A DNA stretch of 63,231 nucleotides, the filler included, from Kipferlia bialata (lineage: Eukaryota): assembly GCA_003568945.1 (NCBI GenBank). It is 3 parts of 3 records of this genome, joined end to end, with 100 filler letters (N's around TTAATTAATTAA, not from the genome) between each part and the next. Parts side by side here need not be neighbours in the genome. Positions count along the whole stretch, not along the records: positions 20,496 to 46,668 come from BDIP01000196.1; 2 more parts are not named here. One strand, written 5' to 3'. Position numbers and translations under genes: made by a program. Of the stretch, positions 2,648 through 63,231 are shown piece by piece (within the stretch, counting starts at the first letter, position 1; each line of letters begins with the position of its first letter). Under the pieces are notes generated by a model. That model worked only from the letters and a program-made list of their open reading frames with translations, did not search any database and was not told where the DNA came from.

Positions 2648-5600
2648 GCTCAGAGAAATCCCACTCTATTTTTGGTTTATCATGTATACACGCCCCATAC
2701 CGACCCTGGCTATGCTCTCTTTCTCTCTCTCTCTTATACACTTACCCCATAGGCTATGTCGTAGTGTTGAGTCCACATCTGCCCCCCAGGCCATACCCAG
2801 GTTCACCTCTACATGTTCAATCACCTACACTATGTACCTAACAATCACCGATGCATTCCTATAGACCCCACTTGTATGTGTATGTATATGCCAGACACCT
2901 TCACTGCCCGTGTGTGCTGCCCTCCCCCTGAATCATATCCAGATATGTACTCATATATACTTATGCTCTTCAATCACCTACACTGTGTTCTCTTCTATTC
3001 TGATACCAACCAGCACACCAGACGATACCCATATATGTACCCTATAGTACATCGCCTACCCCCCCCTTACCTGACCCCAGGGCAAGACCGATACACACTT
3101 ATATGTATTAACTATCTCAGGTATTAATATCGTCCTTGTTCACCACCTTCCCATGTGTATCTGACCCCAGGCTGTCTGCCCCCAGGGCTAGACTGGGGCC
3201 ACCCCCACTGGACGCAAGGTATGTGTGTGTGTATATGCCAGCTGATAATGCCTTTATCCCTGATGATATACCCCCACTGGAGTCAAGGTATGTATATGCA
3301 AGTGGAACCTATATACCCCTGCTATAGGGCCCCCCTAACCCACCAGACTGCCTTGGGACAGAGTGTGTGCAGTATCAGTACATATATTACACCTCTCACT
3401 GGCAGACTACCTGGTGAGACTGACTGTGTGCAGGCCATAGCGCAGGGACACATGGCGCCCACCCCTCTACTACCACCGGCACTGCTCACGGCACAGGTAT
3501 ATGTATATGATATATACTATATATATACTATATATATATATTGAGTATGCAGTGAATGTAGTGTACCCACACCCTTACTACCACCGGCACTGCTCACAGC
3601 ACAGGTATATACTTATACACACACATATATATGTATACTATATATATACTATATGACTATGTGGAGTATATAGTATAACCACACCCTTACTACCACCGGC
3701 ACTGCTCACAGCACAGGTGTGTGTGTATGTATATAAGGATCAATCTTTGGGATATGTTGTGTCTAGTGTACCCACTCTGGCCTACCCATTTCCTATTTGT
3801 ATCCTAACCCCGAGGACGCCCCTGCCAGGGTATGAGTATATATGTATCTGTACGATTATATTATATATATCATTTATATACATGTATATACATGCTAACC
3901 CCCAGGACGCCCCTGCCAGGGGAAAGGGTGCACGGCAGGTGGTAGTGGGGGCTAGCAGGTACATATATAACAGCGGTGTATATATATATGAATATATATA
4001 TATCTCAATATCACTATTAGTGTATATGCAGGTGGTGGTGGGGGCTAGTTGGTTCTGGGTTCTGGTACATATATATGTGTGTGGGAATGCATATGTAGGT
4101 CGGGGGATAGGGCTAGTAGGTACAGGGCTAGGAGTATATACATCTGGCGCTTGTGAGGTACCTGTCATTGGTATCATGTCTCACCCATAGGAACTTGAAG
4201 GCATTTAGAAAGGCCGCTTTGGCCGAGCATCCACTTACGGATTGGCAGGTGGGGGATCAGTGGCAGTCACTTCTCTCTGTGGATGTGAACCGTAGTTCTC
4301 TCTGTCTCTATGGATAGCATCCTTACCCTTCAGTCCATCGAGCACCTGAACCCCAGTCCCCGTCTCCATCTCCATCTCTCTCTCTATTCTATACATATTC
4401 TAACTCTAGTCTCTCTCACCATATATATATAGATGTGTGTGTGTGTATATATGTTTATATATATCTACGGATAACATACTTACCCCCAGTCCATCTAGCA
4501 CATGAACCTCCGACCAGCTCTCTCTCTTTTCTCTATACTCTACATATTCTCACCCTTCAGTCTATCGAGCATCTGAACCTGAGTCACCAGGACCTGGGCG
4601 ATGCATACCAGGCCACATACCTGCAGCACATACTAGGTGGGTATATAGTGTATATATGTGACGGTGAGAGATAAAGAATCGTTTATGGGCTACTGCACCG
4701 GTATGTCTAGTATATGTATATATATGTATGCATGTGTGTCTGACCCCAGGTGTGCAGTGCCAGCCCAAGACGGCACCCCAGCTACTCAGCATAGACCTAG
4801 GGCATAACAGGTGGGATGTGTATGTGTGTATATATGCAGAGTATAACATGTACCAAGGATAGGCTCTGTGTCCAAGATAGTATGTTTGTATTCCACTACA
4901 GTATATATATATCGATACAATATTTATGCATGGTAATGACTTGAGACTATTCGCCCTAATCTCAGGATTGAGTCTCTGTCCAACATGTATCTGCCCCACA
5001 TCCAGAAGCTGTACATGCAGGGTGGGTATATCCTATATTACGTATATATCATATATAGTGTACATGTATAAATATACATATATACTTGTATCTGCCCCAC
5101 ATCCAGAAGCTGTACATACAGGGTGGGTGCACATGGATACAATAGTATGTATATTTGTAAATATAGTTATGTGTGTGTGATTGAATGTCTAGTCCTTCTC
5201 TCTCACTCCCTCACTCTCTCTCACTCACTCCCGATATATATGTATCCCAACCCAGGCAAAAACAGACTTGAGTCTTTCTCTCTGCTCCTCTCTCTCTGTA
5301 TATCAGTACATGCATATATATATATACTTACCCCTTAGGCAACAGCCTCGAGTCCTTCAAGGCCCTGCCCCTCTGTCCCAGACTGGAGGTGCTTTCCATA
5401 GACAGTAACCAGGTACATAGTAGTATATTCTGTATATACTCTTACCACACATATTCTTCATCCAGACAGACAGCTTCCAGGGAAATACTTCGTATAGGGT
5501 GACAGAGGGAGTATATGTACCCCGATCTCTCTCTCCCTTGTCTCTTACCCCTAGATAGAGACCCTGCAGGGTCTAGAGCGCTTCCCCCTCCTCAGAGTGC

Positions 5601-8533: not shown

Positions 8534-8564
<31 letters not shown>

Positions 8565-9351
8565 CCTGAGAGTGGACCTCTCGTCGATGTTGTAGATGGC
8601 CTCAGTCCTCTTCTGGAGGATGTTGGGGTTGAGGGAGCGGGGCTGTCCGCCTCCTCCGATGCAGCCACCGGGGCAGGCCATGACCTCGACAAAGTGGTAC
8701 TCCTTCTCGCCGGCCCTGATGCCGTCGAGCAGCTTCTGGGCGTACTTGATGCCAGAGGCAACGGCGATGCGGAGGGTCTTCTTCTCACCGGTGGGGAGGG
8801 GAACCTCAACCATGGCCTCCTGGATGTCAGTGTCAGAATCTATACATATGGATATACTCATATATACATTTGTGTATCAGTATGCATACCTTGATGCCGT
8901 CAAAGCCACGCACGGGGGCGTAGTTGAGGACGGGGAGGGGGGTGCCAGAGGCCAGCTCGTAGGCAGTGCGCAGGGCGGCCTCCATAACACCTCCAGTGGC
9001 ACCGAAGATGATGGCGGCACCTGGGGGTGAGGGGAGAGAGGGGGGGGGGGGGTATGTATCATATATATATATATACTAGTATATGTACACACCTGTGCCG
9101 GATCCGAGGGGGCAGTCGAACTTGGACTCGGGCAGCTGGTTGAACACAATGTGGTGCTTACGCACGAGCTTTCCGAGCTCGCGGGTGGTGATCACTGCGT
9201 CGATGTCGGCGACACCGTCGGTGGAGAGCTGGGCACGGGCGATCTCCTGCTTCTTGGCGGTACAGGGCATCACGGAGCAGGAGAAGATCTGGGAGGGGGC
9301 GACGCCGAGCTTCTTGGCGTAGTAGGACTTGATGAGAGCTCCCATCATTCC
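6600..9351 (-). CDS. hydA: [FeFe]-hydrogenase (H-cluster and small-subunit domains) fused to a C-terminal diflavin reductase (flavodoxin + FAD + NADPH; CPR/CysJ-like); N-terminus missing
   Basis: Exons 9351-9093, 9020-8890, 8819-8566, 8496-6600. Hydrogenase motifs: L2 MPCTAKKQE, FGATGGVMEAALRT, L3 EVMACPGGCIGGGGQP, small subunit SHENPDIAQLYKEFL...HELLHTHY. Flavodoxin: YATQTGNS, TSTFGMGE, FGIGSSSY. FAD: PRLYSIASS. NADP: GLGSGIAPFRSF, YFGCR, AFSREQAKKVYV, terminal EAW. Confidence 0.95.
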
Positions 9352-9633
9352 CTGGTGTAAGTGAGAGAGAGATAATGGGGGGGGGGGGGACGGGAGGGGG
9401 GGGGGGGGGGGGGGAGGGGGGGAGGTGGGGGGGGGGGGGGGGGGGGGGGGGGAGATATACATATCACCATATATGTAGGGGAGGGGGTATGTGACATCCA
9501 TACTCACTTTGCCCTGTAGTACCCTGCCTCCATCAGCACTAACACATACTTGTATCAAATATATACCATGTACATGCACTCTTATATACATAGATACATA
9601 CAGTATATATTCATATATAGTATATACACTCAC

Positions 9634-10382
9634 TTTGCCCTGTAGTACCCTGCCTCCATCAGCACCTCCACAATGCGGTCATAGGCTGCAGCCTGGAGAG
9701 TTAGGTATATAGCCAAGAGATAGCAAGATCCATATATAGTGTGCGGTCACAGGCTGCAGCCTAAAGAGTTAGATATATAACCAAGAGATAGAAATATCCA
9801 TATAGGGTAGTGTGCGGACATATGCTGCGGCCTGTGGGGTGAGTCAGGGAGTAATACACAGTTATGTAACTAAGCGCAGAGTATGTATATAGCGATGTAT
9901 ACCTCTCTGGAGTCGAAGCAGTCCCTGCCTCTCCGGTCAGGACGGTCAGTCAGGTCAAACCCTGGGGTGAAGGGAAGGTGTATGATAGTGGTGTGTGAAA
10001 GGAGCGGGGTTGGGGGAGGGGGGGGGGGTAACTACAACACGTCCAATCATAGTCAATGATACAACTGCAACATACGGAATAGAATGGGACATAAAACAAA
10101 ACACATACATGAACAACACTCCCACGGGATAACCACCTTAACACTTAATTGTGAGTAACGAGTGTGTATGCACTGACCATAATCAACCAAAACGAGGTAC
10201 CCACTCGTGAAGTGAAGGAATACACTATATACCCAGTTACTCATACAGTAGAGTGGAAGCATACACATCTAACACACTCTAACACACACTCTAACACACA
10301 CATACACACTATGTACCTGGTGGGAGGGGTCGGGGCATCCTAGAGACCAGTCTATGGAGAGTGGGGCACAGTCAGTCTGCAT
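9634..10382 (-). CDS. 5' fragment of a probable CCDC93-like (Commander/CCC complex) gene
   Basis: Exon 9692-9634 reads AAAYDRIVEVLMEAGYYRAK, resembling the CCDC93 N-terminal motif (ILELLVAAGYFRAR, recalled, not searched). Upstream exons lie at ~9961-9903 and 10382-10317. No downstream exons before the poly-G junction. Confidence 0.5.
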
Positions 10383-20395: not shown

Positions 20396-20495
20396 NNNNN
20401 NNNNNNNNNNNNNNNNNNNNNNNNNNNNNNNNNNNNNNNTTAATTAATTAANNNNNNNNNNNNNNNNNNNNNNNNNNNNNNNNNNNNNNNNNNNN
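20396..20495. other. Artificial scaffold-joining linker
   Basis: Exactly 44 N + TTAATTAATTAA (stops in all six frames) + 44 N. Confidence 0.95.
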
Positions 20496-32459: not shown

Positions 32460-32780
32460 AGACTCAGAAGGGAAGGGAAGAGAGGGTGGAGAGAGGGTGT
32501 GGAGTAGAGTGACAACTTAATAGAGCGACATATTTTTCACATTTACATGCTCGCCTAAAGACCTTCTATTGCGAGAGAACATATACATTCGAGAACATAT
32601 ACATTCGAGTAACATTGGGACATGGTACTTGACCATAGGTCGTCTATGGGTCGTCTATCCGCATGATGTTGCAGTCCCCCTCTAGTTCCACAAGGAATGG
32701 GCTAGCCAGTTATATATATACGTACAAATACAACTATACATATATGGTCATTCACCCACAAGAAGTACTTGACAGACTGT

Positions 32781-35700
32781 CTATTCGTCGTCTATCCGCA
32801 TAATGTTGCAGTCCCCCTCCAGCTCCTCCACAAGAGAGGGGTCAGCGAGGAAGCCCCAGTTGGTGAAGTCGCCTGGATATCAGAATACACACGCATAGAT
32901 ATACATATAGATATATAGAGAGAGAGAAAGGGTCAGCAAGGAAGCCCCAGTTGGTGAATTCTCCTAGAGATTAAGAGAGAGGAGAGAGACATAGAGAGAG
33001 AGAGAGAGAGAGAGAGAAAGGGTCAGCAAGGAAGCCCCAGTTGGTGAAGTCACCTGGGGATCAGTACCCATATATTCATATATATACTGTCAGTATAGAT
33101 AGAGAGAAAGAAACCCTGTACCTGGCACCCTGTTCTTGGCCGATGCCCGTGTGTATATATATGTATCAACAGTGGATACATACTAATACTCTGTATACAT
33201 CTAAATATATATCTATGTACACAATCTACACACCTGGCACCCTGTTCTTGGCCGATGCCCGTGTGTCTATATAGTCAGTGTATATCACTATATCCTATAT
33301 ATGTAGTATATACAGTTTATACACACACATATATATATATCAAATATCATATACCTGGCACTCTGTTCTTGGCCGATGCCCGAGTGTATGTCTGGACAAA
33401 GTGGGGCATCCTAGTGATAAGCATTATCATTGGTACATCAAGTATATATACATATGTATATATATATCTCATCCAGCTTAAGGCACCTGCTTATGGGCCT
33501 TGCCATTGTGGGTATGGTATACATACTAATCTATGCATTAATCCATAGTTCATGTATACCCATGTATACATGTATACCAATACACACACACCTGCTTACG
33601 GGCCTTGCCATTGTGGGTATCAGTTACATGTGTTGTGTGTGTGTATAGTCTGTATTTGGTATATATATGCACTATATATTTTATACCTATACTATACTAC
33701 TATACCTGCTTATGGGCCTCGCCATGGTGTGTGGGTATAGTTCACATATATACTATGACACAGCTCTATATATGCATATATATATATATATATGTATGTA
33801 TGTAATATATTGCATACCTGCTTATGGGCCTTGCCATGGTGGGTATCAGGACACACAGGGGGTGCTCATAGACCCAGCTGGGTATGAGATAATAAGAATG
33901 TAAACATACTATGATATACTTCTATATATATATAGGAGAGACAGAGGGAGAGAAGAAGAATATACAGGGGGTGCTTGTAGACCCACCTAGAGTCAGAATC
34001 ATTTGAATAGCCTGGAGAGCAGAGCCTGCGTGCGAAATGATGTATACACCACACACCTTCCAATAGTCTGCAGTTCCTTCCATGTCGACACCATATAGAC
34101 TAGGGGTGTATCTATCTATATATTTGTCTGTCTATATATGCAAATAGAAAGAGAGTATACCACGCACCTTCCAATAGTCTGCAGTTCCTTCCATGTCGAC
34201 AGGATGAATCTCCTGTCCGTTGCATTCTTGCCACCACCACCGGGTAGGAGCTGAGCTAGGACCTAGACGTGAGGTGTTACTACCATATACAACATACATC
34301 ATACCATGCCAAGGAGTCTTCCACAAATATGACTTGACCAGATCAGGCACTCGTCTAACTATCTCTCTCTCAATTCCCCTCCATATCAAATACTGTGTGT
34401 CCATGATTTGAACGGAAATACCCCAACCTCCTTAGTCTGCCACAAGGTAAGTTCTTACACTTAATACTATGATGTGAGTATGCAAAGAGAGAACCTTTCC
34501 CCTTGTCTGAACTGCAAGGTCTGGTACCTTCCGGCTCTTGCACTCTCTCTCATATATGTATATACATATGTATGTATGTGTACATACAGCACATATACAC
34601 TCAAACAAACCTTCCCCCTTGTCTGCACCACTAAGTCTGGCACCTTCTGGCTCTTGTACTCTCTCTCTCTCTCTCTCAATATATATATATATGAATGTAT
34701 ATGTGTGTATGTATGTCCCTACCTTTCCTCTTGTCTGTACCACCAGATCAGGCACCTTCTGGCTCTTGTACTCAGGTTGGAACAGACCCACACCCTTGGA
34801 CTCGTAGTGGTGCAGGATCAGACCACGCAGGAAGATCCTAAGGGTAAGCAACGTACACAAACACACACTATAAAAGTGTGTAAGTAGTACCTTGTTGTGT
34901 CTGGTATCTCAAAGGTGTGGATGCCAGAGCAACATATCAAAAATTGTACATATACATATAGTCATAAAGCAGCAGCCAAAAGACATATACTATGTATGTA
35001 CAAGCGCACTTGTATATGCATATATATACCTCGTTGTGTCTGGTATCTCAAAGGTGTGGATGCCGGGGCTGCCTGGCACAGTTACCTCAACCTCGGGCTG
35101 GGGTTAGTATATAGCTTATACTATAAACATAGTGGTATACCACCTCGGGCTGGGGTAAGCATGTATTGATATAGTACATAGGATATATTCGCATATATAT
35201 ACATATATCGGCCTGTCTGGCACAGTCACCTCCACCTCGGGCTGGGGTCAGAATATGTATACGTATATATAATAGCACATTAGTATAGACATGTACTAAT
35301 CCCCACAACAGAATCCATTCACACTGATGTATATTCGCGGCCACGGAATGCAAGTATGAATATGCAATACTATTGAGAGGGAGAGAAATACTGTACCTCC
35401 GAGAACTGCCTCAGGTACTTCTGGGGCTTGGGGATGACAGGGGGGCGTACTCCTGAGAGTGAGTCATGCCACGATAGCAGTAGTGATATTTATATATATT
35501 CACAGCAGTGATATATTTATCTTTATTTATACATATCTATCTATGAATGACAGGGGGGCGCACTCCTGAGAGTGAGTTGATATACATATACAAGTACAAG
35601 ACTCAAGTGTCTCGTATATACGTGGGAATATAACCCATGTACCTGTCGCTTCATACATGCCACAGACCAGTACAGCGGTAGGATATAAGTATATATAGAA

Positions 35701-36114
35701 CATCCATATATACATGCACCCATATATAGAAGTACTACCTGTCAGCTTGAGGCATGCCTCCGACAGACCAGTGATGTTACAGAGAGACTCAATGCCCTGG
35801 GGTGAGAGAGAGAGGGAGAGAGGGAGAATTGAACAATATACAATTCACTCAAAGTATCTAGTTACTAAAGTATACCTGCCACAGCACATAGCAGCTCTTC
35901 ATGTGCTCTATGAGGGTGGGTCTGTCCAGGGAATATCCATATATATATCCATACACATATACTATACTATTAATACTATACTCTATACACTATATACTCT
36001 ACCTGCCACAGGACATAGCAGCTCTTCATGTGCTCTATGAGGGTGGGTCTATCTAGGGCATCCAGCTCGAAGATGGACACGAATGAACTAGACGAGACAC
36101 TAAGGGTGAGACGA

Positions 36115-36152
<38 letters not shown>

Positions 36153-36217
36153 TGTCAAGGGCATCCAGCTCAAAGATGGACACGAACGAACTAGAGGAGA
36201 TACTATGGGTGAGATGA

Positions 36218-36265
<48 letters not shown>

Positions 36266-36550
36266 GAGAGACAGATATGTCAAGGGTATCCAGCTCAAAG
36301 ATGGATACGAAAGAGTTGAGGTACTGGGAATTAGGGATGTAGAGTGAGAGAGGATAAACACATATACACTGCACTATACATGCATACACACCTCTTCCCC
36401 TTGATGCTGTCTGTCATGGGTGTCTCTGTCACTCATATCCCCTCTCTATCTCTCTCTCTATATATATAATAACATATACACTATACACTACATGTACCTC
36501 TTCCCCTTGATGCTGTATTTCATGGGTGTCTCCGTGACCTCAGGCTCAGA

Positions 36551-36583
<33 letters not shown>

Positions 36584-38882
36584 CATACTACACATTGTAT
36601 ACGTACCTCTTCCCCTTGATACTGTCTGTCATGGGTGTCTCAGTCGCTCATACTCTCTCTCTCTCTCTCTATATATATATACATATCTATGTCTATACCT
36701 CTTCCCCTTGATGCTGTCTGTCATGGGTGTCTCTGTCACCTCAGGCTCAGACCCTTCCTCACTGCTAGAGGCAGAGGGAGAGGGAGAGGGAGAGGGGGAG
36801 ACGGACCTAAGGTAAGAGGAAGTATTATGCATATACATACTTAGTGGAGAGAGAGATAGACCCCTCCTCACGAATACAGATATACACTATGTACCCATAG
36901 ATATAAGAGAGAGTATACTCACCTATCCAGCTGCATCCCTGATGACTCAGACTCACTGTTGCTCGATGACTCAGACTCAGATCTGGCCGTGACACTCTTC
37001 CTGGAGACCCTGTGAGGTAAGATATGGATGCAACATTGACAATACACGTATCTTTGAATACCCCAAGGCCATGATATCCTTCCTAGACACGCTAGTGGTA
37101 AGAGGTACCCATAATTATCCACTAGTATTGACATCAGATTATGTCTCTGTATATATGTACCTAGCCCTTGTTGTTCTCTTGGCAGAGGGGGAGTATATAT
37201 CCATATGTACATAGTATACTAATACTACATACATATATATATACATACATATATATGTGTGTATATATGCATTACTGTACCTAGCCCTGGCTGTCCTCTT
37301 GGCAGGGGGTGCAGAGGAGGGGGTGCCCTGGGGGTGAGTAATTTGTATATATATGTATATATAAATAGAGAGAGAGAGAGAGAGAAAGATGGAGAGAGAA
37401 ATTTTGAATGGAGGGGTGCAGAGGAGGGGGGCCCTGGGGGGTGAGAGAGTGTGAGAGAGAAATAGGAAGAGGGAGAGAGAGGGAGAGTGCAGAGGAGAGA
37501 GAAAGGGGGACACAACGTATGTGTATATGTACTGTATATGTACCCACCTTGCGTGATGCCGCCTTCCCAGTTGACCTTGGGGTGGAGGCAGGGGACGAAT
37601 AGGGGTCCTAAGGGTGAGATATTGTGACAATATATATATATATGTATAGAGAGAGAGAAAGAAAGAGAATAGGGTGTGAAGGGGTGGAGGCAGGGGAGGC
37701 ATAGGGGTCCTGGGGATTAGAACAGGTCAAATACTATTGATACAAACATTTGATGTATATACATGTACATATGGAGGCAGGGGATGTATAGGGGTCCTCA
37801 GGGTGAGGGAGACATACAAAAATATATGTGGTGTACATTCAGATATGACGGGTATATATATATATGAATGAACATCATTGAGAAAGCTGCGGCAAAAGAT
37901 AGAGAAAATGATCTCCATACCTCCTTGACCGCCCTTGTGTAGCTCCTCCTCCTCTCCTTAGGCTGGCCCTCACCCTGGAACCTCACGCTGGGGGTTAGTA
38001 TATATACCATGTTATAATATATAGTGTAGTGGTATCTATGCATATGGATTTCTATACCGATATAATCAATAGTAACTCATGACGTATACCAATTGTTGCA
38101 GATGACACTGGAACAAGGTGCATAGATACACTGTATATAGTGTGACACTTAAGAGCGCTGGTAACAATCTCAGCAACATGTCACATACCGTGGGAGTCGT
38201 GTTGTGAGTGACGCCAGCTCTAACGGGTACTTGGTCTCGGTGCACTGATTGTAAGAGGTGTAGAGAAAAAGAAGGAAAGAAAACGATATGAATGCATGGT
38301 TATACCTGAAAGATCGATGGAGATGAATAGAGAGAGAGAACTAGGAACAGATAAGCTACTGTATATAAATGTGTGTATATATACATCCATACCTGGAACA
38401 GTGCTGACAGGAGGCCATCCCTCATACGGGCATCGAGGTAGGGGTGGCACCTGGGGGTGGGAGGTATATGTGCATCGGTAACATATATATCAGTGGTATA
38501 TCCTATACTATACTAAAACATACACTGAATATACTAGAACTCGAATCCATCAATTATTACACTATACACATACATACCTCAGCAGCATCGAGTGCACCTG
38601 GTGGTACGACTCCACCTGTCTCTACATACTATACACACTATATATACTATACACACTATGTATATACCATATACTATATATACTACACATACTCACCTCA
38701 GCAGCATTGAGTGCACCTGGTGGTACGACTCCACCTGGGGGGAATCCATGCCTGAGACTGCTTTGACTGGCTGCAGTCTGGGGATCAGAACTATCTACTA
38801 TGAATATATAACTATATATATATACTACTATGTATACTGGGCATCCATCCCAGACACGGCCTTGACGGGCTGAAGCCTGAGG

Positions 38883-38913
<31 letters not shown>

Positions 38914-40180
38914 TCTCAATCCCAGAGACTGCCTTGACGGGCTGTAGTCTAGGGTAAGGATAAAACCAAAGGCAATTGCAAGGAACAGGGAGAGTCCGAA
39001 CGAGTTGCCTCCCGAGTGGTACGATCGACTAATACTACACTGGTCCCTCAACCCTACACCCACAGCTGGTCACACACTATCGGATCTATACACTGATGCA
39101 TACTATATACCTACTGCTAATGGCCGGGTTGTCACTCATGATGAGGTCTGTCAATGTTGAACAATAAGGTCTATACTATATATATACTGTATGCAACATA
39201 AGTATATATATGTATATACAAGTACTATACTATGCATCTACCTACTGCTAATTGCTGGGTTGTCACTCATGATGAGGTCTGTCAATGTTGACCTCTTATA
39301 GTGTATATATACATATATATACACTATATGTTATATAAATTGTTATGCTATGTGCATCTACCTGCTAGATATAGCCGGGTTGTCACTCATGATGAGGTCT
39401 GTGAGGGTTGACCTCTTATACTGTATATACATATACTATATGTAATACAAATAGCTATGCTATATGCATCTACCTACTGCTAATGGCCGGGTTGTCACTC
39501 ATGATGAGGTCTGTCAGTGTTGACCTATAGTATTCTAAATACAAGCCTGTGTACAGAACTACTAGCCATATACATATACATATATATATCCTAGATACCT
39601 GCTAGATATGGCCGGGTTGTCACTCATGATGAGGTCTGTCAGTGTTGACCTATAATATTCTAAATACAAGCCTATGTACACAACTACTAGCCATGTACAT
39701 ATACATATATATATCCTAGATACCTACTAGATATGGCCGGGTTGTCACTCATGATGAGGTCTGTCAGTGTTGACCTCTGCCCTGCCGTCCAGGCATTGCC
39801 AAAGGGTCTGATCAGGGACAGAATGGCTGCAGCGGCATCCTGAATATAAGACACATTAGTAATAAAACAATATAATACTAAATGAGGGGATAGAGATGAG
39901 AAGGGGAGGGGATTGCCAAAGGGTCTAATGAGGGACAGGATGGCTGCTGCAGCGTCCTGATAATAAGGGTGTAGAGGGAGAGAGAGAGAGAGAGAGAGAG
40001 AATTGCCAAAGGCTCTGATCAGTGACAGGATAGCTGCAGCGGCATCCTGACAATTGGGTACGTATAATCTAGTGTGCAAACTAACGAGGGGAGAGAGATG
40101 AGAAGGGTAGGGGGATTGCCAATGGCTGCAGCGACATCCTGAGAATAAGGAGGTATACAAAGAGAGAACAAGAGTATAGG

Positions 40181-40592: not shown

Positions 40593-40973
40593 CTGACTTT
40601 GGCTGCAGCCACTGGTACTCATAGCCCCCTGTTGCATGGGTAGGGCAGATGTAGGTGTCAGGTTCCAGTCCAAAGCTGAGTGTCAGAGATATATCACGCG
40701 ACTAGTCAGGGAGGCAGTGCCTCCCGGAGGCACTCGAGAGAGAGACCCACATACATCTGTGCACACACAGAACCTGGAAATACAAATCCTGGTAACATAA
40801 TATCATGCTGTCAGAAAACCATGATGTCGCGTTGTAGTGTCGAAATGGATTTAGAGTGTACTAATGTAGGGCCAAACCAGCTACCTTACATCAGCGTTGG
40901 GGCACGAGAAGGTCGATGCACTAGCAGCGAACAAGCCTAATAGCACCAGGTATATGCATACCCAGTGACGCAT
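40593..40973 (-). CDS. 5' fragment of a secreted Cys-containing protein
   Basis: MRHWVCIYLVLLGLFAASASTFSCPNADV (signal-peptide-like), a probable microexon FCVCTD, and exon FGLEPDTYICPTHATGGYEYQW; ends at poly-G/gap. Confidence 0.5.
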
Positions 40974-46668: not shown

Positions 46669-46768
46669 NNNNNNNNNNNNNNNNNNNNNNNNNNNNNNNN
46701 NNNNNNNNNNNNTTAATTAATTAANNNNNNNNNNNNNNNNNNNNNNNNNNNNNNNNNNNNNNNNNNNN
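46669..46768. other. Artificial scaffold-joining linker
   Basis: 44 N + TTAATTAATTAA + 44 N. Confidence 0.95.
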
Positions 46769-48678: not shown

Positions 48679-51600
48679 TCAAGAATAGAACTCTCTGATC
48701 TCGGTAGTCTTGGTAGTTGCAGTCCCATCCAGTACTAACCAGGTTTCGACGATCCTAGCCCCCCCGTGTATCACTGTGAATGTGTATGTCCCTGACCCAG
48801 ATGGTGTAGACGCCGTGGTACAGTTGTAGGTATCACCCACAGCGTCATAGGCACATGCAGCATCGACCCCTCCCCAGTGCACAGTCACACTCTCTGACGG
48901 GTAGGAAGCGTCCCCGCACACGCCGTGTAGGTACACTGTATGTTGTGACATGTCTGCACTCTCATGGTGTACAGAGGTCAGGGACGGGTGGGGTTTAGGG
49001 TCACCGGCAACAACGATGCTCACTCCAATGGCTACCTCCCCACAGTCTCTGGCATATACGGTACCAGAGTATGTCTCTGCGGCACAAGGGGCTGTGAGTG
49101 GCACAGAGTATGTGCCAGTCGATGCATAGTACACCGCGTCGTACTCGTGACCGTCCAGGCTCAAGTAGAGGTCAAATACCCCTGTGACTGGTCTGCCGTC
49201 TTGTGACAAGAGGTTACCAACAGCTAGGCGAACACTCTCGCCTGGTCTATATGTCACTGTCCAGTCTGGGGTATCCGTAGTCGCTGGCATGAGTCTGGGT
49301 CCATATACAGCCACTCCCTGGCCGTCTATCTGTCCCTCAACCCGTACATGCAGGTATACACCATCCCCACTCACACTGTGCGCATAGGTGGACGGGGCGT
49401 TGGGGTGGATGGGGTAGAGAGACCCATTGCCATCCAGGTTCTGACCCATCAGGGCCACCCTCCCACTGTTACTGCCATAGCGGTCGTCAGTAGCGTCTAC
49501 AGAGTACACCTGGCCCCCCATTATGACAGCCCCTGTCTCTGTAGTGGGTACCCCGGCCTTGGAGTGCACCTCTGTGCCAGTTGCCAGGGTGGCAGAGTCT
49601 ATAGAGACCTCAGAGAGGGTGTGGGTATCATCCGTGCCAGCATGGGAACGCATCAGGAGTCTTGTCGGTGTCACCTCATCGATGTACCACATGTCAGACC
49701 TGAGTTGGATAAATCATTGAGCAGATGACATAGAACACCCATCAGAACCAGGCGAAACCAATCTGAATCTCTTGCCAAAGATCCTTACAACACTCACCCG
49801 TAGTCGTAGGAGTCACTTGTACCAACGTCTATGCCGCCATCCGTGAAACTGACCCTGTGCACTGCTGATGAGCCAGAGGCCTAAGGTTAGAATATGGTGT
49901 ATATATATATATATATCATCAGACATATATAAATCTATATCATTAGAGGCCTGAGGTTAGAATATGATGTATATTTATGTATATGATCAGAGACATAAGG
50001 GTCAGAATATGAAATCTACATATCACCACATATATATATATATATATCATCCGAGGCCTAAGGTCAGCATATGGTATATATACACTGACGGTCAATCATG
50101 AACAGAATATATCATCAGAGGCCAAAGGGTCAGGCAGGATCAGTGTCAGTAGTAGTAGTAGTAGTAGTAGTGTGGTTTCTGACCACTGAGCAATGAAAGG
50201 CCTAGCTCTTTGCGCACAGTAGTAGTCAGAATACCCTGTCACACAAGTGTAGAATACATTGGCTGAGGACCTTGAGAAGAAATGGAAGAAACTTGAAAGA
50301 ACCCATACCAAGGTATATGCCAGAATCTCCCCGTCCAGCGCTGCGTCGTGGATATTGGAGAACTCTCCGTCCAATGCCCAAATACCACCACTGTACCGTC
50401 TAAACACGACCAGCTTCTGACCAAGTCCCGACTCACCGACCAACACACCTACTCTGGTGTCAGAAGAAGCATATGAGATTGGGAGTTTGGAGTAGAGAAA
50501 GACAAACACACCTGTCACCCCAGCCTATCACGCCTCTGGATCCTAGACCCTGTGCGTCGATGTCGAGGCTGATGACACACTCCACCCGCCATACCCCAGA
50601 GTCCATGTCACGCTGCAGTATGTGGATCTCTCCCTTGCCAGACCTGGCTGCCGGTGCCACAGCTGCCACTGTCCAAGGTGAGAGCGCGGCAGTCGCAGTC
50701 ACACCCGCCACATCAAGCGTCTGACTAAGCGCGTAGAACTCAGTCACCGAGTCGTGCTCGAAGAGAGAGACAGAGCTTGAGGATGGGGTCCCAATGACAC
50801 GCAGGCCGGCACTCCCTCTTATATCGGAGGCAGGGGTGCCAACCTCTGAGGTACTACACGATGGCCCGTAAAAGCCACAGAGGTGCAGCCCACTCTGGAC
50901 AAGTGAGGCGCTAGTGACAGTCCCGTACTGTGAGGTGCCCAGCACCCTGTTGTTGACACGTACGGTCAATGTGAACACACCAGGTGGAGTCATGATTTGA
51001 CACACATACAGACTGTCGGTGTCTCTAAACACACACGGAGAGGTGGGGCTCTCATCGCTGTAGCTGACACCTACCGAGAGGCCACATCCGACATTGTCCC
51101 CACCAGCAGTATACACAGCGACTGTGTACACCCCCAAAGAGAGAGGCACAATGGAGGAAGGGGGAGTGACGGTAACAGTCGCTGGGGCGGCAGAGGGCAC
51201 GAAGAGCCGGACCTCTCTACTGTCCTTCGAGCCAACTGTGACAGCAAACCCAGCAGAGACTGAGACCTCGGAGAGGCCGCTCCCCTTGGTCCCGTACCAC
51301 TGGTGGGTCATCGCGTAGGAAGTGCCGTCCTCAGAGGCAGTGTGTAGCACAGCACCCCCGTTCCCAGAGGTGTACTCACTGTGACCGAACCCTGCTTTAG
51401 AAGGCACGCCAACCAGCAGCTGCCCCCCGGAGAGCGATACTGAATGTCCAAACTCTTCACCGTACGCGAGTGGCGAACCACACTCCGCGAGACTGGACTT
51501 GGACTGATCCTGGTGAGTGTAGGTAGTCCCAATCAGCCCATAGCGGTATACCCTGCCAGGGCTCACGTCACCCTGGGAGGCCCCTATAACCAGAGTCCCA

Positions 51601-54600
51601 GCATCCTGGGAGAGAGAGATCCCAAACCTCTCTCCACTTAAGGGAGCAGGGGAGGTTATCGTCTGTACCGAGGCGAATCCTACCATGTCCTCCTGAAGTC
51701 TCTTGATAACCACCGTCCCAGAACCGGCCGCAGTCGGATTACTGTCTGGTTTTCCTGGATTCAGACGAGTGGAGAGGTAAAGAAGTGAATCATAAACAAA
51801 CACCACACGTACCATAATCAACGACAAACAGATTGGTATATTTCTTGGTTGAACACATATACATATACACTAACGTACCAACTGCCAGGAATCCACCATT
51901 GAAGGATAGGGCCTTTACAACGTCGGCCCCCTCACTGTCTAGCCGGCCGTGATATGTCCAACTGTTCCAGAGGTGGTAGAGGAAGAGGTGCGTGTCTGCT
52001 TGTACTGCCATCCAGTTGCCAGACACAGAGATCAGGTGGCCAACACCAGTGTTGTCTGAGACAAGTGACGCTGAGGGGGCGGCGATTGTGCCTGGAATTA
52101 GAGAAATGATACTCGGGAACAGACACAGACTGTATGTAGGCACTGTGACACAGGGCGCATATGATATGTGTCAATGAACCCACCTACTGCTGTGACAGCT
52201 GCTGAACTGACAGAGTAGATGGATACACAGCTGACTGAAGGTCTACCCGCATATAGCACTGAATTCTGGAGTGCAACGCTGTCAATACCGTCATCCAGCG
52301 GGAAGCTACCGTACGTGTAGGTTCCTCCCGAGAACTCAAAGACATGCGCAGTTCTGGTAGACGCCGCGTCCTTGGACACCACCACAGTCAGCCCCCCCTC
52401 AGATGTCACCAACGCACCATCCCCAAAGGCGTTGGTTGGAGAGTCGAAGGAGTTGGGGACGTCCACCTGGCGGAGGTACTCGTAGGAGTCCCCTACCACA
52501 GTAAGGGGCCACCCGATGCCTAGGGCAGTGACTGATGCACCGCCTAGGGAGAAGGGGTAGGAGCCAGGGGTGGTGGGTCCGGTGACGGTACAGGTGAATA
52601 TCCCATCCCTCCCGTGGCTCAGTGGGACATACATGCCGTTAAACATGGCATACTGCGGGATGTACTTGTACGGAATATTCCTCAGCACACGATTAGTTGT
52701 ATGCCACATGTAAAAGCTGACTATCGTGCGTTCTCTGGTGGGTATCGTCGTCGTGGAGAGGCCGAACCCAATAGGTCGAGTGGCCCCGGGAACGTACAGA
52801 TGGACAACACCCGTGCCACCCGCCAGGGACGTCGACCCAACAACCAAGTAGCCATTAGATATAGCCGATGATTGCCCAAACCTGTGCGTGGTCCCGCCGT
52901 ATGTATCCTTTCCAAGTGTAACAACATGTGTGTACCAACCCGCGTTGCAGTCGTGGGGACTCAAGACATGCACTCGGGAGTCTTGGAGATCAGTGTCAGA
53001 ATCGTCCAGTGTCGACACAGTTAGGTACGTCCCATCTGTGGCCAGGCGAGAGGACAGGACATACTCACTCTCATACTGGATAGAACCATCAGCGAGGTAG
53101 ACCCTGGGGTAAGTAGAGAGACTAGTTATGCACCCTCATCATACACCGTCACTCAATGATGATAACATAGTATAAAGATACAATAGTAATACAATTATGA
53201 AATCTGGATCAAAAGATCGTGAACACAATTCCCCACCTCACATGAGCACCACCGGACGTAGACCGGTAGGCATAGTCGATAGTAGCAGCAGCGTTGGTTC
53301 CGGAGTATGCTGCGATGCCCTGGGGGCCTATACCCATATACCCAAAGTCTGACTTATACCACTCCCAGTATCGGCCATAGGAATAGGTATTGAAGTCGTA
53401 TATGGCGAAGATCCCCCCAGCCGAAGAGCCCACAAGTAGACTGGAACTACTACGGAAGGCGAGGCTGCTCACTTGTACGTCGTAATAGGAGAACAGGTAG
53501 GGCGAGGACCACCCGAGTGCCTCTCTCTCATACACTGCCACTGGGCTTGTGGCAAGTGTTGAGGAGGTGGCAACCAGAGTGGTGGTACCGTCTGCGTATA
53601 GAGCCACCACCGCCCCGTATCCAGCATAGGACTCCATGTCAGGATACGTCAGAGACGGGGTGAGGACTTCCTCTAGTATGTAGGCACCATTAGATAGCAG
53701 GTACACCCACACTCTACCGGAGTGCTCGCCGGTCGTGTCGCTCTGCCCCACAACGAGCGTGTCACCCTGCATGGCGACTGAGGTTCCAAAGGATGGGCCG
53801 GAGAACACACCATCTGAGAGTGTTTGGACATGAGAGACACTCTCAGCTATGTAGCTGAAGACGTGGACAACCTCTTGGGCGGGGTCGGCGACCGCAAAGT
53901 AGGGTAGCGAGATAGCAACGTGGGTTCCAAAGTCAGCGGTAGGGGTGAACCCTAGAGACACAGGGACAGGGACCTCACAGGCAAATGGGGTGAGAGCGTT
54001 AAACGTCTCAGCGAGTACGTGACCTAGAGTCAGACGGGACGGCACAATCAGATACACGATATATATACATAAGAGCGACATATACTCCTTTCAAGACTAA
54101 TTCCATAGGCAAATATACATTGAGCTACCCATATATGTATACATTGAGCCATACCTCCCTCGACGAACAGTTGCAGCTGGCCTGTCTCGTCAGCCACTGT
54201 CACATCCACACAGTACTGTCCAGTGGCCTCCGTATAGACACAGGGGTAGTCAGTGTCGGAGGTCTCTACCAGCCGGAATGCAACGTTGGTAGCAGCAGTT
54301 CCAACTGGTCTGTGAGTGATTGCATATTGGAGAGATACATTCTAACTACTGTCCAAACAATACTAACCTTGCGACCCTGCCGAGTCAAACAGAGTGGCGC
54401 AGACGGGTACTGGAGACCCGAGTACAAGACCCTCGTGGGATATCGTGTAGGAAGAGTGATGGCCCTTGACAATCCAGGCGGCAGAGAAGGTCTCCCCCTC
54501 CACGTTGACCTCATACACGCCGACAACACCCACGTCTGCGGCATTGGGATTGCCATACGTGACCGTCCAGGAACTGTTGGTGAGCTGGTGGAAAGTGACA

Positions 54601-57600
54601 TAAGAATTTCAGACATTGCAAAGACGGAAGAAATAGGACCGAAAGATATCGCCATCAGAGTGTGAGAAATCCAACCTTCCGTTCTGAGTAGCGGACACCG
54701 AGTCAAAATTGACACTGGTAAATGTCTTTGTCATTGTGTGTCCGTTCTCATTGAGGACTGTGAATGCGACAGTGGTGTCCCCCACCAGTCTGTGTTGGAC
54801 GATGACCGAGGTAGGGGTACCGGAAGATACAGCAACCTGGGCGACAGACAGGGGATTCCACTGGGGTGAGAGTGAGAGACATCATATAGCAATTAGTAAC
54901 TTCAATATTAACACCAAAGAATACACAGTCTATGTATATACATACCAGGCTGACGGGCATCTCGATGTCACGCTCGAGGGCCGACACCACGACGGCCGTG
55001 CCCTCGGTCGCCTCCACCTCCTTGTAGTACGTGTTGGTCCCAGGGACGTGCATCATTGGGTATGTCCCTGGCGCATTCCCTATGGCAATCACCAGCTCCC
55101 TGTCTGTACACGGTGTCCCGTCAGCGTAAAAGAGGGTCAGTGTCACGGTGCTCTTACCGGCAGATAAAGGAGCGGCAAAGATACCCTTCAGGTTCTCCCC
55201 TGGGGTGTAGAGAGCCACGATGCCCTTCCCGCTATCTGGATAGTACCCAGCAGTCATGTAGCGCCCCCGGTCTATGCACACAGACACACTCGTCGTTGTG
55301 GAAGCGTAGGTGGCGTCCGAGAAGGACGGTCGCCCGGACGTAGTGTATCGGTCTGTGGAGCGGTTGATTACGAACGTGTTGGCCCAGGATCCAGCACGTC
55401 CTGGGTTCAGCAGAGTTATCATAAGGTGGGTAGGAGTATGGACTGAGTGTCTGTATGTCAGTACATATATCTGAGTACCTTGTACGGACACTGCGACTGC
55501 CACCAGGCTGCCAGATATGGACAGACTCCCAGGATCGGCAACCACAGACACCATCCCGCTACTGTGGTGCAACACTTGCTTCGTGACCTTTGAGCCAGAG
55601 GCGTAGTCAAACATGTGGATCAATACCCCAGTCACTCCATGCGTAGAGTCCCTAACAGCAACGCCAACGAGGTCGTTATGGGTGGCGACGGCAAACGTGT
55701 GGGTGTTGTTGTTGATACCCAAGGTGATTTGGTCGCTGAACTCCCACACTCCACCCACAGTCAGGCTGTAGACATAGGAGTCTGGTGGTGAGACATCAAG
55801 TGTACTAGGCACAAGCGTAATCGTCTGAATCTCAGAGGGTACCTTGGTAGTTGGTACCAATCACCAAGCGGTGAGAATGTGCATCTGTGTTCACATCTGT
55901 CACAGCCACCGTGTATCCAAACTGGCCGTAGGTGTCGGTAGTGGAACCAGTGGAGTATGTAGTGGTGTCCTGGGAGAACGGGTCTCTCAGCCTCCACACC
56001 TGCCCGTCAGGTGGTCATGTGGTGTAGTCCATAACTCAACACCACGAGATAATACGCCATAATACTGTGTAGTGAAAAGGTAACTCGAACCATACCTGAC
56101 TGTGCTTCTCGAGCTCGTAGACATACACCATGCCCGTAGTTGTGGGGCCAGTTTCCTTGTAGGCACCTACCGCCAGCATACCAGGCGCTAGAGACAGACT
56201 GCAGCCATACATGCCAGCAGATGGGCCGGAGAAGGACTGCTTCCTCTGATAGACCCCACCCTCGAGGTGGTAGAGGAGGACATATGATGTATCATCATCC
56301 GAGGCGACACACCTACCAACGGCAAGCCACCCGTTCGACATGGAGACCTGGGAAGTGAGTACAAACATACAAGTCAACAGGGCCTAGGGAGAAAGAAGAT
56401 GGCGATGAAGCTATGCTCTCTCACCTTGTAGGATATGTCTGCAGACGTCATAGTCGCACCAACAACAGACGTGTCCAGCAGAGAGGCCTCAAAGTGCTCA
56501 GCACTGGACGTGGTATTATAGAGAACCACTCCCTCAGCTGCATTGCCGCCAAGTGCTGCCCAGTCACCGTCGAGGGCTGTAGAGTATGTCCCCGAGGCCT
56601 TGCTGTACTTGAATACAGTCTGCTTGTCCTGTGGAACAACAGCTGGGTTGTGAGTGGTGATGTGACTACTAACACTTCAGGTATGCCTTGTAAATATGGA
56701 AACATACCCTTGATAGCAATATCCTGCACAGTAGTAGCATTGTTCTCGAGCTTGAGGGTGGCAGTTGTGTCGTCAGTTAGCCTATGGGTGTTGACATAGC
56801 ACTGCTTGCTCTCGCTCCACCTCACAGCAGTCGCAGAGCCTCCCTCGACACTCGAGGTCAGGGTGGTGAGGTTGCCCTGGAGTGAGTCTCTCAAACTCTA
56901 TTTACCATACCATGACCATATATCGTAAATGTATGTATATGTATATATATGCCACACCTGGAGGATGATGCCTTGTGAGTCGGCCAGAGTCATGCAGACA
57001 TCAGTCTCCACGTCCAGAGGCATCTCGACATCCGAGGCAGCGATGGAGGCGGTAACTGGGTCCAGCGCAACCTCAACATCAACACCCAGGTCGTAAGTGC
57101 CGAGACCTGCGGTTCAGAGAGACATATGGGTGATGGCAAGGACTCGTAACCGTACCTGATATGTCCACGTATAGCGAGTGCACACCATGATCGGGAGCGG
57201 CGTAGGATCCCATAATGGAACACGACCCGGCCTGGTACACCCCCACAAAGGGTATTCCGTGGTCTTCCCACTAGGTGTGAGAAGTGTCAGACGATTGAGT
57301 AGTATCAACGCTATATATATGTGTGTGGGGGGGTAAACATATAGCTCCATCCGATTCACCGTACCGCCATCATTGTTCCGTCTAAGGATGGGTCGCAGAT
57401 GGGGTATCCATTGGCGTTGAGCACAGTGACATAGACGTCACTGCTGATGCCCCACTTCATCTGGGCTGCTACTAGAGACACAGGTGCACCAGCGGAGACC
57501 ACGGAAACTAACGACTGGGAGTGAGACCAAACAAGGGCAGAGTTCAAGACCAATGATATATAGAATAGATGATAGTACTAAATGAGGAATGAAATCATAC

Positions 57601-60600
57601 CGTCTGGGTCTTGTTCGAGACCATTCGAAGCTCCCCATCGGAGCTGTAACCATATACTCCCACGGACAGAGTGACTGTGCCGTCCTCTGTCACCAGAAGC
57701 CCATCCGGTGCCTCATACTCCTGACTCGTCACGTTGTAAGCGAGGGCTGTGGTAGAGGTGGACCCGTCGGAGTCTGCTGTGAAGAGAGCCTCAACCCACA
57801 GACCAGACTGAGCATCACCAGTCGATGCATCAGCGAGAGTCACCGAGTAGGGAGAAAGGCCATACACAACCTCAGAAGGTGCGCTGAGATACACATCAAC
57901 GTCCTCCAGCACGTACAGGCGCATGTTGAGAGAGGAATCTACCCCAAACGAGCACACCCTCGCATTGTCATGGTCAACAGCTATCGTGTTGCCAAATCCC
58001 CCTCCCTCTAGCTGGGCAGGGTGAGGGCTTGCGACGTAGCTTACATCGTTAACCCCGTCATCAACATAGTTCACCAGTGCCAGAGCACCTAGAACAGTGC
58101 TGCCTTCAGCGTAGAGAGGTGCACCGACAACAAAATTGTTGCCCAACATAGCCAAACTCGATCCCCAACCGAATCCAGAGAAAGTGCCGCTGGCTGAGAG
58201 TCCCCAGGAGCTAGATACACACTCGAACATGTAGACAGTGTCGATACTCGGAATCCCAACCATCAGAACAGAGGACTCGACAGCCAAGCTGACATCTGCA
58301 GCTATGAATGCGGTGGTGAGGGGTATGACGTCCTCCAGCGTCCAGTCGGCACTGGAGAGGGAGTCACCGTACCGCGTGTATACAAACACTGACCCGAGGG
58401 CACCCGCTGTCCCACCTGATGCGGCTACAGCTAGGGTCAAGGCATCTGGAGATAGTGCTACCTGGCAGCCAAACTGTGTGACAGTCACGGTGCTCGGGGA
58501 GAGAGAGTGGACCTCCTCCCAAGAGCTGGCAGCAGAGTCCCATTGGAACACGTACACACGCCCATCACTCTCTTCTGGGGCAGATACCACAAGAGTGTCC
58601 TTGTGCATGTCCAGAGAAGCCCCAAAACGAGTCGAGGAATTGATGCCCTAGGAGTCAATGACAGACATCGAGAGAGAGAGAGCAAGGAGAGGGCAAGGAG
58701 ATAGGGCAAGGAGAGAGCAAGGAGGGAACAAGGATCAAGAGTAAGCACACACCACCTGGGTACTAGGTAATATCTCTAGGGGTTCAGTTCCCCATCCTGT
58801 CCCAGCTTCGTTGAGTAAATACGCCATGACAGCAGGCACTGCAAGGCCCGGGGCTCCAACCACCAGACTTCGACCCTCGGCGGCAATGGCTCCCCCAAAC
58901 TCTGCATCTGAGCCCATTGCTGGTACCGAGACGGAACCATATGTACCCCAGTTACCATCCACGTGTTGTATGATGTGGACATCGCCAGGAGAGGCACCCC
59001 CTGCCCCTGGAACCTCGGACAGAAACAGCCACTCGCCTTGTGTTATGTAGTACAGGGAGAGGGAATGACATGAAGATAGAGTATACAAGATGTATATATA
59101 CCCACACACACATATATATAGGTATACACACTGCACCATACCGGCTAGAGCAACTGCCACGGGGTCTAGGGGAACCGAGGATGTCACTGTGCCCCCCACC
59201 TGCCTGGCAAGAGGGAGGGAGAGGGGTGCCTCAGGAAGGGGGCCGCCAGAGGCACTGACGAGGCTGGCGCTGCTGTCATTGGTCATGTAGAGTGGTCCCA
59301 GAGTGACCGTAGCGCCATGTGGGACGAGGAAGCCAGCAGGGTAGCTATACACTCCATCACTGCTGTGGGAGAGCGTGACCCCAGACATAGAGCCATCCTG
59401 GTATTATGTAAATTAGTGGAATCATATATATAATCATGTACTCACTGTACAATTGAGGTATAATAGTGTGAACGACATATCTCACCTCCAGTGTAACCTG
59501 GGCCAGTGTGTGGCTCCCCTCCACAGGGGTGTCCCCAATCTTGAGTGTGAGGCTGAGGCCATCGTAACCTGCTGTCCACGAGCCACTGCGGTGGTACATT
59601 CTCTGCTCCAGGGTGATGATGGAGTTCTGAGTTCCGCCCGCCTGGTCTTAGTATCACACGGGAATTAGGATGTGAACAAGTACAATGACTATATATCCCC
59701 TCACCTGAGACTGTACCAATGTCACGAGTGTAATCATATATACATATATACATATATCATACAGAGGGAGTAGCCAAGTCACGAACTGAGATGTATATCT
59801 CCCCTAACCTGCGCCTGTGAAGGAATAGAATAGAATATGTATTTCCACTCACCTGCGCCTGTGCCACTGCCACGAACCCATCGCCTGGCACACCCATCCG
59901 GACCCCCTTATCAACAGTTACTGCGTTGAGGCCAGACTTCCTAGCAGCATCTGTGTCCTCATAGTGGTACGAGGATACGTACTGCCCAGTGGCCTCGTCA
60001 AGTGTCCACACGGCCACACTGTCTGCGCTGCTGATGGATGTCTTGGTCGTGATCAGAACATCGTTGTAAAGGGCAACACTGTACCCAAACTGAATGTGAG
60101 ATTCTATCTATCGGTAAACCACAGGACTGATTCTCAAGGGATCCTACACCTTCAAGCGTCTTCTCACCTGCTCACCAGGACTTGTGTTGGATATCGTCTG
60201 TACCAAGTCATAAGAGGTACCGCTCCACTTGTATACCAGAACAGAGCCAGCATTCTGGGGGTGAGAACCGCATTTGATATCCATAACCAACCTCAAAAAT
60301 GGTAGACTCGCTACCGCATACTTACCGTGGCGTTGCTGTTCTCTCCCGTGCTGCTCTCAGGGGCTCCAACTGCAAGAGTACCATCAAACAGAGAGAAGGA
60401 GAGACCGAAGCCTCCATTCACATTGTATGTGGTCACAACGTGCTCTGTGCCTGGTATGGGTATTACAATTACATATATATGTAATATATATACATATGTT
60501 ATAGGTATATTGCATTTACATATATATGGGAATGTGTATATATAGATACAAGGGAATCTCAAGAAGTTTCTTAGAGAGAGAGCTGTCCATACCATCGGGT

Positions 60601-63174: not shown

Positions 63175-63231
<57 letters not shown>

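Follow-up and report, generated by a model that had tools for sequence, protein, structure and literature searches.

Why should an intron carry copies of the neighboring exon end that differ from it in nucleotide sequence but not in the peptide they encode? Non-coding copies are not expected to keep a protein sequence. The question arises from Kipferlia bialata KIPB_001397, a gene on the 63,231-nt stretch of DNA analyzed here (the window). Its exon peptide matches one database protein, KIPB_001397 itself, and its Pfam search returned three matches, every one below the cut-off, such that no family is assignable. We refer to intronic copies of exon ends as echoes.

Exon-end echoes in an intron of KIPB_001397

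The echoed portion of the predicted live exon A is its last 51 nt (34773–34723, minus strand). An earlier note on this DNA had described a copy of this segment with seven nucleotide changes and no amino acid change, and its coordinates, strand, and codons are all correct. Exon A and the copy, echo B, encode the identical peptide EYKSQKVPDLVVQTRGK, with 7 of 51 nt differing in six codons, all synonymously (CTG>TTA accounts for two), and with all seven differences confined to positions 24 to 48. A third copy with three amino acid changes had also been reported. Indeed, echo C encodes ECKSRKVPDLAVQTRGK and differs from A by 10 nt and three amino acids and from B by 9 nt. Three states (CCA, GAC, and AGG) are common to B and C and absent from A, and a GT directly follows each of the three copies. 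The chance that seven random changes would all be synonymous is 1e-5 to 2e-4; under a fairer null, wherein a dead-on-arrival duplicate is compared with a live copy that drifts synonymously, it is 0.0007 to 0.003.

Table 1. Positions of the exons, echoes, and associated features within the window.
Feature	Position	Strand	Remarks
KIPB_001397	32781..39839	-	18 exons analyzed, 14 echo-bearing, 36 boundary echoes
Predicted live exon A, KIPB_001397	34723..34837	-	115 nt; matches annotated protein P0001
Exon A signals: branch-like CTTAC, TAG acceptor, GT donor	34723..34837	-	
(GA)8 tract, end of unit A's 61-nt intron piece	34662..34677	-	
Echo B	34611..34661	-	Versus A: 7 nt / 6 codons changed, 0 amino acids; GT next
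(GA)3 tract ahead of echo C	34546..34551	-	Junction position same as that of B
Echo C	34495..34545	-	GT donor weak: PWM 0.4 versus 9.6 for A
Probable decayed, gapped third echo	34426..34468	-	Ends AG|GT; shuffle p 0.0035
Probable fourth remnant	34337..34356	-	14 nt identical to A, after GA-rich tract; p 0.003
Next live exon	34168..34262	-	
Live exon end and five donor echoes	39111..39776	-	All six encode STLTDLIMSDNPAISS
Two acceptor-side echoes of the exon at 38777	38839..38948	-	
Two donor echoes, leucine-rich gene, other scaffold	3566..3716	+	Frame from hand-built open gene model

As had been claimed, neither B nor C has a branch point plus YAG, and the internal AG|GT of B scores −10.5 as an acceptor; the lowest of 42 live acceptors scores 2.4 and their median is 10.8. 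B and C are likely never translated. Mutually exclusive duplicated exons are copies of a whole exon, each with its own acceptor and donor; B and C were rejected as such exons because they cover 51 of 115 nt and have no acceptor. The (GA)8 tract runs into the first GAG of echo B, creating a short microhomology junction. The earlier proposal that copies start within (GA)n tracts holds here and for the array at 36699 and is not general.

Two extra decayed remnants lie farther down the same intron (shuffle p about 0.003 each), the farthest of which retains the A-type codons CCT GAT CTG. Decay with distance from the live exon, as the note proposed, is seen in this intron, wherein B carries no amino acid change, C carries three, and gapped remnants follow. 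The A/B/C pattern is real, is beyond chance, and is part of a gene-wide pattern.

Boundary echoes lie on one side of each exon edge in the genes examined

A repeat scan yielded 102 same-strand pairs, mostly at exon edges. Reading frames were set for 40 exons of six genes, 18 from the annotated protein and the others from hand-built models, of which the multi-exon ones are open when joined, and the flanking introns were searched by nucleotide score alone. The resulting 69 hits include 32 donor-side echoes downstream and 29 acceptor-side echoes upstream of their exons, eight interior hits, and none that are reversed. Thus, the polarity that the earlier note expected is strict in the genes examined. 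Leaving out the interior hits gives 61 boundary echoes (median unit length 106 bp, range 67 to 156 bp), with at least one at 30 of the 40 exons. Because the genes were picked for having repeats, these counts are not a genome-wide rate. The sidedness is what selection would leave after tandem duplications that span exon boundaries.

Several other exons also have echoes with mostly synonymous change. The array at 39724 to 39111 has six copies that encode 16 identical residues and differ pairwise by up to 10 of 48 nt. The differences include a TCT/AGC serine switch, which is unreachable by single synonymous steps, and codon haplotypes interleave along the array. The switch, located beside ATA/ATT, splits two interleaved echo classes (39474–39526, 39242–39296, and 39111–39160, minus strand). 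For the pair e3/e4 of this array, a 20% intron mismatch predicts about seven replacements, whereas none is seen. The nearer acceptor-side echo of the exon at 38777 has seven synonymous codons and one replacement at its edge, and it lies, together with most of the live exon, in a single DNA contig piece that has no mismatch; an RNA-like contig uses the innermost acceptor of this exon. The echoes at 3566 and 3679 each have four synonymous and no replacement codons relative to the live end at 3458 to 3496. The census omits two genes of one exon each (at about 200 and 45,100), whose frames are unverified and whose hits run counter to our main reading: two acceptor echoes have one replacement and no synonymous codon each, and a doubtful 14-nt donor hit has two replacements.

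When codon changes were compared with distance in 14 multi-copy arrays, replacement change was higher in the farther copy for 10 of 20 neighboring pairs, lower for 5, and equal for 5 (Spearman rho 0.30, p = 0.08). Synonymous distance had no trend (8/7/5, p = 0.70). Hence the age gradient across arrays is weak, and the decay proposed in the earlier note is clear in the target intron but weak elsewhere.

Echo lineages have been under coding constraint

A copy that is dead from birth should give a dN/dS of at least 0.5 against its exon, wherein the live copy changes silently and the dead copy changes freely. The pooled echo-versus-live dN/dS is 0.20 (bootstrap 0.14–0.30; 61 echoes in 41 arrays; p 6e-8 with kappa 2). 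The departure stays significant when the target array is removed (59 echoes, p 4e-6) and when shared variants are de-duplicated (p 6e-5, untrimmed, kappa 2). Synonymous divergence (pS) is 0.21 to 0.26 pooled and 0.5 to 0.6 for A/B. KIPB_001397 alone gives a strong signal (dN/dS 0.08–0.18), whereas the five other genes together (25 echoes) give a dN/dS of 0.27 to 0.36 that is not significant (p 0.03–0.29). There is one stop codon in 645 echo codons. The earlier suggestion that copies arrive already synonymously diverged is thus supported by the census of 61 echoes.

We simulated all 61 echoes as dead-on-arrival copies under the same detection rules, with echoes treated as independent (six settings with 120 replicates each). 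The share of amino acid-preserving codons reached a simulated maximum of 0.56 untrimmed and 0.59 trimmed, compared with 0.64 and 0.77 observed. Between 0 and 1.7% of replicates contained even one echo with at least six synonymous codons and no amino acid change; three such echoes are observed.

Changes were also polarized in the 14 multi-copy arrays. Where a farther copy agrees with the live exon, the state was assigned to the echo branch; 25 such states are synonymous and 4 are replacements (22:4 excluding the serine switch). Live-private states are 9:0 and the remaining states are 14:8. Five mutation models predict 25 to 34% synonymous change on a dead branch, and a transitions-only model predicts 0.51. 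The synonymous differences lack a GC-to-AT direction (33 versus 32). Mutation bias involving transitions, GC-to-AT change, or CpG was rejected as a source because it cannot yield the synonymous excess. Replacement changes are not clustered at the junction end (0.55 versus 0.52, p 0.73), contrary to what the crossover form of the allelic model proposed below predicts.

These data bear on the simplest explanation, which is that the echoes are plain tandem duplicates, dead from birth, with B as the luckiest of many and aided by mutation bias and silent drift. Such duplicates would explain the polarity, the unit size, and near-identical neighboring copies such as 39724/39599, and they are not rejected by the five other genes alone. 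They are, however, rejected by the pooled, de-duplicated, polarized, and simulated tests and contradicted for KIPB_001397. Even transitions-only mutation falls short, and every scored echo donor retains its GT beside saturated flanks (see below). We judge this explanation highly improbable.

Splice signals persist in the echoes

Although GT was not required for detection, it is intact in 30 of 30 donor echoes, a count that omits two of the 32 donor rows (the terminal-exon echo and one aligned inside its exon). At positions +7 to +30, donor echoes have an identity of 0.37 to the live intron versus 0.335 for unrelated donors. Among 29 acceptor echoes, AG is intact in 24 and a branch-like motif is present in 28 (background 11%), often as a different valid motif. 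The 95th percentile of unrelated flanks is exceeded by two flanks among the 30 donor echoes and four among the 29 acceptor echoes. Four upstream acceptor echoes (5771, 25015, 37796, and 3815) have TG or GAG in place of YAG, and competing upstream acceptors may be selectively disabled.

The low dN/dS, the synonymous echo branches, and the survival of GT together argue that the echoes descend from separately working sequences. Constraint on coding and splicing has acted on the echo lineages independently of the resident exon.

Alternatively, gene conversion with the resident exon might homogenize old echoes in cis, or second-order selection might keep them clean if they sometimes take the place of that exon. 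Conversion in cis would preserve the exon part and GT while introns diverge, and echo 36432–36392, with an exon part identical to its exon beside an unrelated intron start, fits this expectation. By our reasoning, however, conversion by the resident exon would leave a dN/dS of at least 0.5, since replacements are erased only in the live-to-echo direction, and second-order selection would need a conversion rate above the mutation rate, which would also erase a pS of 0.2 to 0.6. Moreover, valid but different branch motifs at echo acceptors are not expected from copying of the resident site. These considerations make homogenization very unlikely.

Another candidate is that the 3′ half of B is an alternative exon half, kept coding by splicing between the internal AAG|GT in A and the corresponding AG in B, as in Rogers-type intron gain. 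All seven A/B differences are downstream of the AG|GT at position 18/19, and the score of the internal donor is 7.1. An AG|GT switch is present in 11 of 61 echoes, four of them from one array; their usable codons are 31:5 synonymous to replacement, versus 83:60 elsewhere. This use of B would nevertheless need an AAG acceptor that lacks a branch point, whereas all 42 live acceptors are CAG or TAG. The switch is absent in 50 of 61 echoes, including the all-synonymous 3566/3679 and 33156, and the spliced contig at 39724 carries the live version. Echo offsets are not enriched for multiples of three (21 of 61), and 8 of 61 echo sites would be in frame and stop-free if used as distal splice sites. 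Rogers-type gain calls for an AG|GT in the unit together with a branch point and a YAG acceptor; with the switch in 11 of 61 echoes and an AAG acceptor at −10.5 in B, this combination is not present, and we give an alternative exon half a slender chance.

Read-derived contigs contain some of the echoes and, where spliced, skip them

Contigs from two sequencing runs were compared with the window. Run X2 is RNA-like and presumed to be RNA, and its contig 9 joins exons across introns. This contig bridges seven exons from 39841 to 36921 with no mismatches, using the innermost acceptor and donor each time; in one intron, five donors and two acceptors are skipped. The seven exons exclude the target exon, and X2 cover is absent from 34035 to 36751. 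The 14 echoes of these bridged exons have 28:10 unique amino acid-preserving to amino acid-changing codons (p 3e-4). The annotated first exon (40593–40637, minus strand) is absent from the X2 contig upstream of 39841, where a 195-letter loose end differs; the 5′ end of the KIPB_001397 model is probably wrong or within a nearby gap.

The DNA run X1 provides zero-mismatch contig pieces at a uniform depth of 428 to 524. X1 is possibly from the same sample as the window, and its contigs are a separate assembly of raw reads. At least 16 of the 36 KIPB_001397 echoes lie at least 80% inside the eight X1 pieces listed. Echo C has 45 of 51 nt in a zero-mismatch piece that reaches the next exon, and echo B is inside none of the eight. 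X1 cover is absent at 36505 to 36751. No alternative letters were found in X1 contigs between 32800 and 40200, where contigs show presence, not absence, and a single haplotype was seen.

An assembly artefact, in which two haplotypes or strains were written in tandem at A-B, should be weighed here. The genome is a short-read SPAdes assembly of a diploid culture, for which sections 6 and 7 of PMC5874029 do not describe cloning, and the position of B outside the listed pieces is consistent with an artefact. Against this, at least 16 other echoes, including C and the strongly synonymous 38876 and 39416, are in zero-mismatch pieces at uniform depth. We consider such an artefact barely credible.

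A possible origin from diverged working alleles

For both of two lineages to be under constraint, each must have been live somewhere, which would place the source of the copies on other chromosomes or at other loci. We propose that B and C are copies of an exon end and donor that were probably captured from diverged working alleles by out-of-register recombination. It seems reasonably likely that this same exchange between diverged alleles grows and refreshes the arrays.

As the first step in this model, the first echo would be seeded when microhomology guides a rare duplication of about 100 bp that spans an exon edge. One echo copies the stop-codon end of its exon, so seeding does not depend on splice sites; this donorless echo, past the terminal exon (32644–32689, minus strand), spans the last codons and the stop with three synonymous changes and one replacement. 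In the second step, only boundary-spanning copies would survive, presumably since an intact exon remains beside them and the spliceosome picks the acceptor and donor nearest to it; the polarity itself is observed. Next, an echo from one chromosome would pair with the live exon of another, and unequal crossover or strand-annealing repair would add a unit or overwrite one with the other allele's exon end, donor, and intron start. If allelic introns are nearly unalignable, the echo would be the sole homology besides the exon itself. Captured units carry mostly synonymous differences and intact splice signals, as observed, and after capture would decay or be replaced.

Out-of-register exchange would explain junctions common to several units. 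B and C begin at the same codon after a GA tract, and pairs in the 39724 array likewise share junctions. Such junctions suggest that a single duplication seeded the array and that an echo then exchanged out of register with the live exon of another allele. Six synonymous sites have three states, two of them in the target array, and call for at least three working source lineages or additional silent changes in dead copies. Three or more source lineages would indicate an outcrossing or introgressing population, not the two homologues of a closed diploid.

The synonymous distance that allelic capture requires, 0.2 to 0.6, is very high for alleles. Published excerpts indicate that very high synonymous diversity is possible in free-living protists such as Paramecium (PMC11334263); the literature searched gave no numeric benchmark for protists and no population data for the K. 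bialata lineage. K-mers suggest that K. bialata is diploid (PMC5874029, in part). In the sections of PMC8516963 on these genes, fornicates retain Dmc1 as two paralogues and lack NHEJ and Rad51A; metamonads, in which neither sex nor parasex has been observed, have conserved meiotic genes. Database and metagenome searches found no B-type exon or second protein. The metagenome scans gave 41 pattern matches, none confirmed, and no exact match to the B haplotype; P0001 is the sole member of its protein cluster.

The sources might instead be working paralogues or homeologues, from past hybridization, polyploidy, or gene arrays, whose synonymous divergence was followed by fusion or loss and of which exon-end remnants are left. 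This origin accounts for the same coding constraint, and a pS of 0.2 to 0.6 with unalignable introns fits it better than ordinary alleles. A paralogue could be missed because the public assembly is fragmented (N50 10.5 kb, 84% BUSCO; PMC8516963, in part). On the other hand, to account for 36 echoes in one gene and at least three lineages per array, many copies would have to coexist or the cycle would have to recur, and recurrence should have left replacement changes in old echoes. The earlier note had raised a mis-joined paralogue as what would overturn its reading. Weak searches of 7990 near-length candidates, 44 shorter candidates, and the exon peptide gave no paralogue and no support for such a misjoin. 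We regard a paralogue origin as unlikely.

If capture from working alleles is correct, comparison of each echo with its exon would make allelic diversity, dN/dS, and the history of recombination readable in a single genome. One genome of a free-living metamonad would then serve as a population sample and as sequence-level evidence of outcrossing, and would show how mirage-type arrays grow. Possibly, echoes record outcrossing in a group without observed sex. More tentatively, introns may archive fragments of other individuals' working alleles, with frequent out-of-register recombination between highly diverged haplotypes (synonymous distance 0.2–0.6) depositing exon ends genome-wide.

Relation to known boundary repeats

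The architecture is known from the mirage repeats of amphioxus, which occur in Adh3, the globins BflGb6 and BflGb9, PGBD5, and troponin C, and for which unequal crossing-over has been suggested as the mode of turnover (PMC3087553 and PMC3902484, in the portions on these repeats). As in the mirages described there, Kipferlia units are tandem, lie over exon–intron boundaries on both 5′ and 3′ sides, are of similar size (60–160 bp), and keep AG/GT with splicing undisturbed, the innermost sites being seen in use at the seven X2-bridged exons. Mirage units of BflGb6, as reported in those portions, are 81 to 100% alike including the intron part, whereas Kipferlia intron parts are mostly unalignable and the peptide is kept. 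The Kipferlia case also differs in its metamonad host and in having up to 36 echoes in one gene. Since few flanks exceed the 95th percentile of unrelated ones, we class it as a variant and not a member: it is a mirage-like variant with a purifying-selection signature in the copies.

In supplement 4 of PMC3087553, inspected by eye, a synonymous GAT/GAC difference separates the two live BflGb6 alleles and varies among echoes of both haplotypes, a pattern that fits interallelic exchange in amphioxus. The word “synonymous” does not occur in the main texts of PMC3087553 and PMC3902484, nor does “duplicat” in the available text of PMC5874029 and PMC6679479. The literature searched, to which most subscription papers and the original mirage paper are external, gave no account of Kipferlia echoes and none of synonymous bias in boundary repeats. 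Thus, the architecture is known, and the coding-constraint signature was not found in print.

The 37-bp VNTR in IVS7 of human F7 is alike in that its first unit lies over the exon–intron border and the most upstream donor is used while those downstream are silent. In the part of PMC1557585 that describes them, its pseudo-sites are identical, at one locus, with no coding signature; Kipferlia, unlike F7, also has acceptor-side arrays, with the last acceptor used. Intron gain by tandem duplication similarly involves a short duplication that includes an intron 3′ end and exon start, or AG|GT (PMC4974935, in the sections on this mechanism). It differs in that the RNA-bridged part of the Kipferlia gene has no new exon or intron and most echoes are without usable sites. 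The closest mechanistic analogue is the interallelic turnover of human minisatellites, in which units move between alleles by synthesis-dependent strand annealing, non-reciprocally, to give mosaic arrays (PMC2599865, in excerpt). Minisatellite units are non-coding, whereas one unit of each Kipferlia array is a working exon end, and captured units would therefore carry a signature of purifying selection.

The spliceosome of K. bialata is reduced (87 of 174 proteins, according to the relevant part of PMC6679479), and the echoes allow many natural tests of how it skips intact donors and branch-point acceptors. In practice, echoes can mislead gene models and read mapping.

Other features of the window

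The N-runs at 20397 to 20495 and 46669 to 46768, with the linker TTAATTAATTAA, are joins of separate scaffolds, and the middle piece (20496–46668) has 26,173 bases. At 49870 to 50135 (minus strand), about five tandem copies of a branch point and acceptor, with few exon bases, lie upstream of a short exon. A long, repeat-rich, many-exon gene at 50500 to 63200 (minus strand) probably encodes an extracellular protein and has FG-GAP-like motifs by eye; it has few echoes, and echo density is thus strongly gene-dependent. In the gene at 6610 to 9920 (minus strand), one exon is very long and GC-rich, and the exon at 9692 to 9634 has echoes. By eye, we take the product of this gene to be [FeFe]-hydrogenase-like and fused to flavodoxin and FAD-NAD reductase-like domains.
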